Origin: Eledone cirrhosa
Lineage: Eukaryota
DNA length: 64,000 nucleotides
NCBI GenBank assembly: GCA_964016885.1
Contig: OZ024758.1
Location: 37,076,001-37,140,000, forward strand
Reading direction: 5' to 3'
The notes under the pieces are model-generated. The model was not told where the DNA came from. It saw only the letters and a list, made by a program, of their open reading frames with translations, and ran no database searches. Positions 25,665 to 26,994 of the stretch are shown here, in pieces (within the stretch, counting starts at the first letter, position 1; every line of letters starts with the position of its first letter). Made by a program: the position numbers and the translations under genes.

Positions 25665-25792
25665 ATGTAGGAGGTGAGTTTTATTGTAGTACAATAAAGC
25701 AATGCAGATATCGGTTAAGAAGCACTCTACAGTTTGTAGGACTGGAGTATACATAATATAAGATCAAAAGATGGTTAAAGGAGTTCCATGTA

Positions 25793-25859
25793 TTTTATTA
25801 TGCGCATTTCAAAAACAAACATCATCATGCAATAATATTTGTGTTTTCATCAGATAAAA
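25793..25859 (-). ncRNA. Hammerhead ribozyme motif (family B)
   Basis: Reverse complement of 25987-26053. Confidence 0.8.
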
Positions 25860-25986
25860 CAGGAGAACATGATATGAAGACTAAAAAACACTTGTGGATA
25901 GTGCAGTTTTAAATCAACATATGATATGTTGATTTAAAACTGCACTATCCACAAGTGTTTTTTAGCCTTCATATCATGTTCTCCTG

Positions 25987-26053
25987 TTTTATCTGATGAA
26001 AACACAAATATTATTGCATGATGATGTTTGTTTTTGAAATGCGCATAATAAAA
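25987..26053 (+). ncRNA. Hammerhead ribozyme motif (family B)
   Basis: ttttat-CTGATGA-[aaacacaaatatt...gatgtttgttttt]-GAAA-tgcgca-TA-ataaaa; stem I ttttat/ataaaa; palindromic stem III. Confidence 0.82.
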
Positions 26054-26085
26054 TACATGGAACTCCTTTAACCATCTTTTGATCT

Positions 26086-26994
<909 letters not shown>

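Follow-up and report, generated by a model that had tools for sequence, protein, structure and literature searches.

How does a short, noncoding repeat come to stand as a near-perfect palindrome with a hammerhead motif facing outward in each arm? This question is raised by locus B1, at positions 25666 to 26093 of the window (the whole stretch of DNA that was analyzed, 64 kb in length), which is one copy of a repeat family named here family B. The two arms of the palindrome, 25753 to 25922 and 25924 to 26093, are 170 bp long each and are complementary at 169 of 170 positions around a single nucleotide, G 25923, in agreement with the original prediction of arms of about 170 bp around a one-nucleotide center. 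The sole mismatch sets 25880 A against 25966 C, and the perfect centered arm that ends at this mismatch measures 42 bp, compared with at most 9 bp in 200 dinucleotide shuffles of the 428-nt B1 region scored for the longest perfect centered arm. The left arm has minus-strand sense and includes the center base (25753 to 25923); it extends by another 87 nt as a 3′ tail (25666 to 25752, minus strand). The right arm (25924 to 26093, plus strand) corresponds to the left-arm unit minus its first base and the tail. Both outer ends meet (TA)n, on the left as a target tract at 25582 to 25665 (TRF, 25582 to 25664, period 2) and on the right from 26086, where a (TA)n-derived tract of about 900 bp (26094 to 26993) follows that is common to the long end of a neighboring element, family C. 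Thus, the earlier description of a longer left arm reaching 25666 holds, but that of (TA)n at the short end only does not. Within such flanks a target-site duplication is not readable. The family B unit is 258 nt long and noncoding, with stops in all three sense frames.

Four loci of family B lie in the window. B2 (44104 to 44362), a solo copy, has the long end and shares its 5′ boundary with B1, including the center base of the B1 left arm. B3 (57136 to 57444) and B4 (62473 to 62781) are one insertion copied by segmental duplication; the duplicated segments span about 56.2 to 59.1 kb and 61.6 to 64 kb. The long end is identical in the copies at 44104, 57444, and 62781, the stop of the B1 right arm recurs in those at 57136 and 62473, and TA runs adjoin all seven 3′ ends of the four loci. 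The copies differ at 2 to 7 positions over about 163 nt. For B2, B3, and B4 alike, the long end is situated in the 3′-terminal TA run of one LINE-like family (43750 to 44079, 57450 to 57776, and 62787 to 63113). In B3, the arm without a tail begins at unit base 10, whereas the arm with the tail begins at unit base 120; the arms are therefore mutually nonnested, and neither can be a copy of the other. At the B3 junction, bulged microhomology extends over about 8 nt; the site that it matches is present in B3's own arm as well. Two further ideas about the copies were rejected: (i) a remnant second arm in B2, as the BLAST extension of 13 nt past the center is AT rich and is mismatched at the second and fourth postcenter bases, and (ii) 5′-truncated copies starting at the ribozyme cut, as the truncated arm of B3 starts 6 nt upstream of the predicted cut and the depth in run X1 falls gradually, not sharply, at that point.

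Sequencing reads of four of the 23 listed runs (X1, X5, X21, and X22) were mapped against the B1 left arm only. About 4,600 to 5,200 records were mapped in each of X1, X21, and X22 and five in X5; family B is very abundant, with the proviso that depth is not equal to copy number. Loose ends that continue into (TA)n are concentrated at 25665, the long end (X1, X21, and X22), and at 25748 to 25756, the short end, so that the B1 right arm stops at a family-wide end. The single-nucleotide center, 25923, lies at a recurrent 5′ boundary of the family (25921 to 25923) marked by the end of B2, by read joints at 25921 and 25922, and by loose ends at 25922. Each of the pileups at 25808 and 25733 was taken to be a single RAD locus rather than a biological end. 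The X1 loose-end consensus behind 25922 might be a mixture of (TA)n and other palindrome centers, but it was set aside in view of its agreement of 0.64 in 10 contigs. Six joints were listed, of which four connect opposite strands (25685/25844, 25697/25921, 25760/25908, and 25762/25922) and the other two are single-contig skips. X21 contains all four opposite-strand joints and X22 three of them; each has one to three read starts and thus probably represents one locus, the orientation being deduced. By arithmetic, the short side extends exactly to 25665 in 25697/25921 (33 letters) and in 25685/25844 (21 letters), and to 25733, where reads end, in 25762/25922 (30 letters); in three of the four opposite-strand joints, accordingly, it runs into the tail or exactly to 25665, and the same calculation again makes the tail-bearing arm the truncated one. 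The reads, of 150 nt, end before the 3′ end of the longer arm.

As predicted, each B1 arm carries an outward-facing hammerhead motif of type I, recognized by our descriptor. That of the left arm occupies 25791 to 25861 on the minus strand (CTGATGA core from 25853, predicted cut at 25799), and that of the right arm occupies 25985 to 26055 on the plus strand (core at 25993 to 25999, GAAA at 26036 to 26039, palindromic ATGCGCAT at 26039 to 26046, predicted cut after 26047). Both have an 8-bp stem I with one G-U pair, a long helix II of 36 nt, and a palindromic helix III, ATGCGCAT. The assignment is based on this descriptor and on the published minimal-hammerhead architecture (PMC4209133). The descriptor matched 4 of 10,000 shuffles of the arm, with a palindromic helix III in one of these, and over the window it matched nine sites, compared with a mean of 0.11 and a maximum of 1 in 100 shuffles. 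No hammerhead model appeared among the 150 of 160 Rfam matches listed or among the 11 of a second search. In three unrelated families of the window, helix III is palindromic although its letters differ (ATGCGCAT, ATATATAT, and ATGATCAT), which supports the hammerhead motif. Minus-strand CTGATGA...GAA motifs that fail the descriptor exist at 46256 to 46457, 50926 to 51119, and 53250 to 53320 and are possibly divergent hammerheads.

Catalytic activity of the family B hammerhead is doubtful, because helix II lacks the usual G10.1-C11.1 pair, closing with A-U instead, and because folding prediction has stem I populated only about 8% in the solo 258-nt RNA. The pairing probability of helix III in the monomer RNA is about 0, and the computed energy of the 8-mer self-duplex is −10.5 kcal/mol; helix III would need a dimer, as expected for PLE hammerheads, which are described as dimer dependent and weakly cleaving in vitro (PMC4209133). 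From either strand, a transcript spanning B1 is predicted to form a duplex of about 170 bp (about −285 kcal/mol), which is the long double-stranded RNA that had been anticipated. Read-through from either flank would make the antisense arm first, and the duplex would then form, so that the ribozyme is buried and cleavage is predicted to be blocked. The hammerheads should thus be silent in hairpin transcripts; they may be passengers of the pseudo-LTR (pLTR), each in need of a second sense copy for helix III.

To what class of element does family B belong, a point on which the original prediction was silent? We hold with high confidence that B1 is a single insertion, in head-to-head form, of a short, noncoding Penelope-type pLTR unit into a (TA)n microsatellite, because its anatomy fits the pLTR of Penelope-type elements (PLEs) in the hammerhead, the head-to-head inversion, the tail at one end, and the TA target. 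PLEs are described as having an inverted 5′-truncated copy at the 5′ end, a tail of 30 to 40 bp at one end, pLTR hammerheads, and (TA)n targets (PMC8557442). Inverted pLTRs are a standard feature in PLE curation (PMC8969392), the promoter and the RNA start lie in the pLTR (PMC2377424), and PLE hammerheads have a small palindromic helix III and occur as opposite-strand pairs 100 to 700 bp apart (PMC4209133). In family B we found the type I motif with a palindromic helix III; head-to-head joining at the 5′ end in B1, in B3/B4, and in the four opposite-strand read joints; and a one-sided 3′ tail between two recurrent ends, which measures 87 nt versus the published 30 to 40 nt. Neither the mobile-element structure nor its explanation by self-priming is new, as head-to-head palindromes were published in 2013 (PMC3846280).

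Other assignments were considered and rejected. An autonomous PLE does not fit a 258-nt unit that has stops in three sense frames and no RT/GIY-YIG open reading frame (ORF), and no PLE ORF is attached to family B within the window. A non-LTR retrozyme is contradicted by the absence of tandem arrangement (0 of 4 window loci) and of a long-end-to-5′-end joint among the six listed. The unequal ends, with their 87-nt tail, and the single-arm solo copy at 44104 to 44362 speak against a MITE or foldback DNA transposon. A MIR529 precursor scored 58.1 bits over the center and 11.7 bits on one arm, compared with an Rfam gathering score of 75 bits; all Rfam microRNA and snoRNA matches were below the gathering score and reflect hairpin or TA composition. 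A metagenome pattern scan returned 0 stretches. The other RT ORFs of the window (42121 to 43926 and 51742 to 52890) were discarded as partners, having RVT_1 only and no match to PLE-like queries; we take them to be LINE-like.

Family C (26994 to 27337) has a sequence unrelated to that of family B. Its arms of about 129 bp flank a center at C 27209 and carry hammerheads at 27238 (plus strand) and 27180 (minus strand); one arm is long and the other short, the tail is about 86 nt, and (TA)n lies on both sides. Among families B, C, H, D, and E, no similarity was found beyond two B-H matches of 18 to 22 nt. A third hammerhead family, at 25340 to 25581 on the plus strand (core at 25353, palindromic helix III), adjoins the (TA)n tract of B1 with its 3′ end, and together with B, C, and D it makes up a set of four hammerhead families along the TA tracts from 25.3 to 33.5 kb. 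At 31350 to 31464 and 33424 to 33538, inverted hammerhead-bearing ends stand 2 kb apart around an AT-rich body without a recognized ORF. The window has a single PLE-like protein fragment, a GIY-YIG piece (24360 to 24770, minus strand) preceded by a cysteine cluster; it is 0.9 kb left of B1 and is not attached to family B. The fragment region (24339 to 24870) is 5′ truncated and 46% identical to the unnamed proteins P0003/P0004; its 5′ inverted junction has arms at 24748 to 24775 and 24787 to 24814, an 11-nt spacer with an 8-nt templated duplication, and a 15-nt duplication in the right arm. Elsewhere, the window contains a 21-kb satellite array (1 to 20966; 54-bp unit, 161-bp higher-order period), an ORF with a C2H2 zinc-finger array (49082 to 49630), and TA-rich arrays at 33535 to 34855 and 37620 to 40214 that are mirror images in their Rfam matches, possibly a larger inverted duplication.

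How, then, did the two arms come together? The reading that we favor, at slightly better than even confidence, is that there were two cDNAs, started from opposite strands of the target and from different family ends, and that their 3′ ends were joined; this explains solo, asymmetric, and symmetric copies by one mechanism. A PLE RT/GIY-YIG protein, supplied in trans, would cut both strands of the TA target, and the two 3′-OH groups would serve as primers for cDNA synthesis, one at 25666, the long start site, and one at 25753, the short one. The two cDNAs would extend toward the RNA 5′ end, and their 3′ ends would be joined head to head by an end-to-end template jump or by microhomology. If both reach the RNA 5′ end, a palindrome with a center of 0 to 1 nt would result, as in B1, the single nucleotide being what an end-to-end jump with a 1-nt overhang might leave; if the tail-side cDNA stops early, the product would be an asymmetric inversion, as at 57136 to 57444. 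We infer that the palindrome center is probably the RNA 5′ end, that is, the transcription start. A purified PLE protein is reported to cut and extend both target strands and to begin reverse transcription at two sites, one at each boundary of the tail (PMC11167929), and non-LTR RTs jump between separate templates via nontemplated overhangs, as shown for R2, not for PLEs (PMC8857657). The stricter proposal, in which twin priming occurs at two fixed sites, namely, the RT start sites that bound the tail, with fusion by template jump and a 1-nt center equal to the RNA 5′ end, is offered tentatively, as a possibility short of even.

Alternatives that deny a single insertion event fare poorly. Long palindromes beside long TA tracts are error-prone, and B1's own 25923/25922 junction is absent from the joints listed in independent reads, as might be expected of a fold-back sequencing or assembly chimera. 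We nevertheless regard such a chimera as highly improbable. The family letter at 25880 is G (95% of the X1 depth, 90% of X21 reads, and 78% of X22 reads), so that the left-arm A is a private change, while 25966 in the right arm carries the family letter. A fold-back chimera would have copied the private change; the arm mismatch, which the original prediction had already held against an artifact, is confirmed and retains that force, although it may be a consensus error. Moreover, the stop of the short arm coincides with a biological family end, family C has the same plan, and inverted joints occur in the raw reads of two other samples. B1 is thus probably a real structure formed in a single event. 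Two independent insertions meeting head to head, or a later inverted duplication by DNA repair, might be entertained for an abundant family with closely related window copies and with PLE-type fragments accumulating in the TA tract, but they are improbable: both arms reach the 5′ boundary within 1 nt, as in family C; both contain a run of 6 T, compared with 7 T in the three other window copies; and a repair duplication would not end at the family short end. The arms also agree at 16 family-variable sites (rough chance, 0.017, assuming independent sites, which they are not), which is weak evidence for a single event, the window copies being close relatives.

The more serious competitor is self-priming, in which the 3′ end of a cDNA or of an antisense template folds back and is copied into the second arm, and endonuclease trimming at a TA-like site within the unit yields the short end and the tail. 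Abundant head-to-head inverted PLE structures with palindromic junctions have been so interpreted (PMC3846280), the tail has been ascribed to endonuclease resolution of an intermediate, and the formation of tandem and inverted PLE structures is named an open question (PMC8557442). The original prediction of a cDNA 3′ end folded back during integration fits B1 taken alone, in that the right arm is a nearly identical subset of the left, and this counts against dual priming. As a general account it is less favored, and we consider it rather unlikely. Snap-back demands that one arm be copied from the other, which is so in B1 and in family C but not in B3. A folded target-primed cDNA cannot give the nonnested arms of B3 without losing its own attached tail, and the short arm of B1 ends at a family-wide end, not at a random point. 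With two, three, and four extra complementary bases, a hairpin centered on 25923 would still cost +3.1, +2.3, and +1.7 kcal/mol, respectively, and it becomes favorable only at five, yet copy B2 shows no extra complementary bases beside the center. The self-complementary CATATG end, for its part, predicts a 0-nt center (intermolecular duplex, −6.2 kcal/mol) rather than one of 1 nt. Dual priming, in turn, is favored by the outer ends of B1, both of which are recurrent family ends running into (TA)n (25665 and 25748/25756), by the nonnested arms of B3, by the four opposite-strand read joints, and by family C, which repeats the plan of B1 independently. Against it stand the finding of no PLE ORF attached to family B in the window, the length of the tail (87 nt versus 30 to 40 nt), and the reliance on B3 as the single independent nonnested locus that was fully read; published data would also predict long/long and short/short pairs. 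The microhomology at the B3 junction, to a site in its own arm, agrees with self-priming, and B3 could also be produced by an extrachromosomal self-primed intermediate trimmed by endonuclease. In addition, at the 24707 to 24870 junction the second arm is contained in the first and ends inside an ORF, which suits fold-back or template switching.

As an object, B1 is ordinary: that PLE ends carry hammerheads, stand head to head, and have a tail on one side is textbook knowledge for the class. The value of family B is that of a test case, as symmetric, asymmetric, and solo outcomes with fixed ends can separate snap-back from dual priming. If two-site twin priming is true, families B and C, with their tails of about 87 nt and very high copy number, would constitute a junction library for the question of PLE inverted structures. 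If abundant, near-perfect hairpins of 170 bp could be a source of double-stranded RNA or small RNA or a substrate for editing.

In L1 twin priming, two target-primed cDNAs produce a 5′ inversion joined by microhomology. In such inversions the same segment is not normally present twice, nor does the second primer lie at a fixed internal start site. Dual priming shares with this process the two target-primed cDNAs, whereas a fixed second start site belongs only to the B1 proposal. No dual-priming model for inverted pLTRs was found in the literature searched, outside which lie most subscription papers, including the PLE papers of 2004 to 2006. Family B resembles non-LTR retrozymes (bioRxiv 10.64898/2026.07.22.740005) in being short and noncoding, in the type I hammerhead, and in the proposed derivation from PLEs; those elements form head-to-tail tandem arrays, whereas none of the four window loci of family B is tandem. 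With the PLE hammerheads (PMC4209133) it shares the CUGAUGA...GAAA...UH core, a long helix II, palindromic positions around loop 3, and opposite-strand pairs; it differs in closing helix II with A-U, not G10.1-C11.1, and in a helix I of 8 bp, not 4 to 5 bp. The head-to-head copy, the palindromic junction, the one-arm tail, the type I hammerhead, the AT/(TA)n target, and the recurrent ends are all shared with the inverted pLTRs of endonuclease-containing PLEs, namely, Drosophila virilis Penelope, Adineta vaga Pen1 to Pen6, and Poseidon/Neptune (PMC3846280, PMC8557442, and PMC11167929). In contrast to PLE pLTRs, family B has no ORF between or beside the repeats, and its tail is 87 nt rather than 30 to 40 nt. 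Finally, whereas the pLTR palindromes of A. vaga measure 18 to 38 bp, the arms of B1 reach a fixed 5′ boundary and form a palindrome of 170 bp around a 1-nt center.
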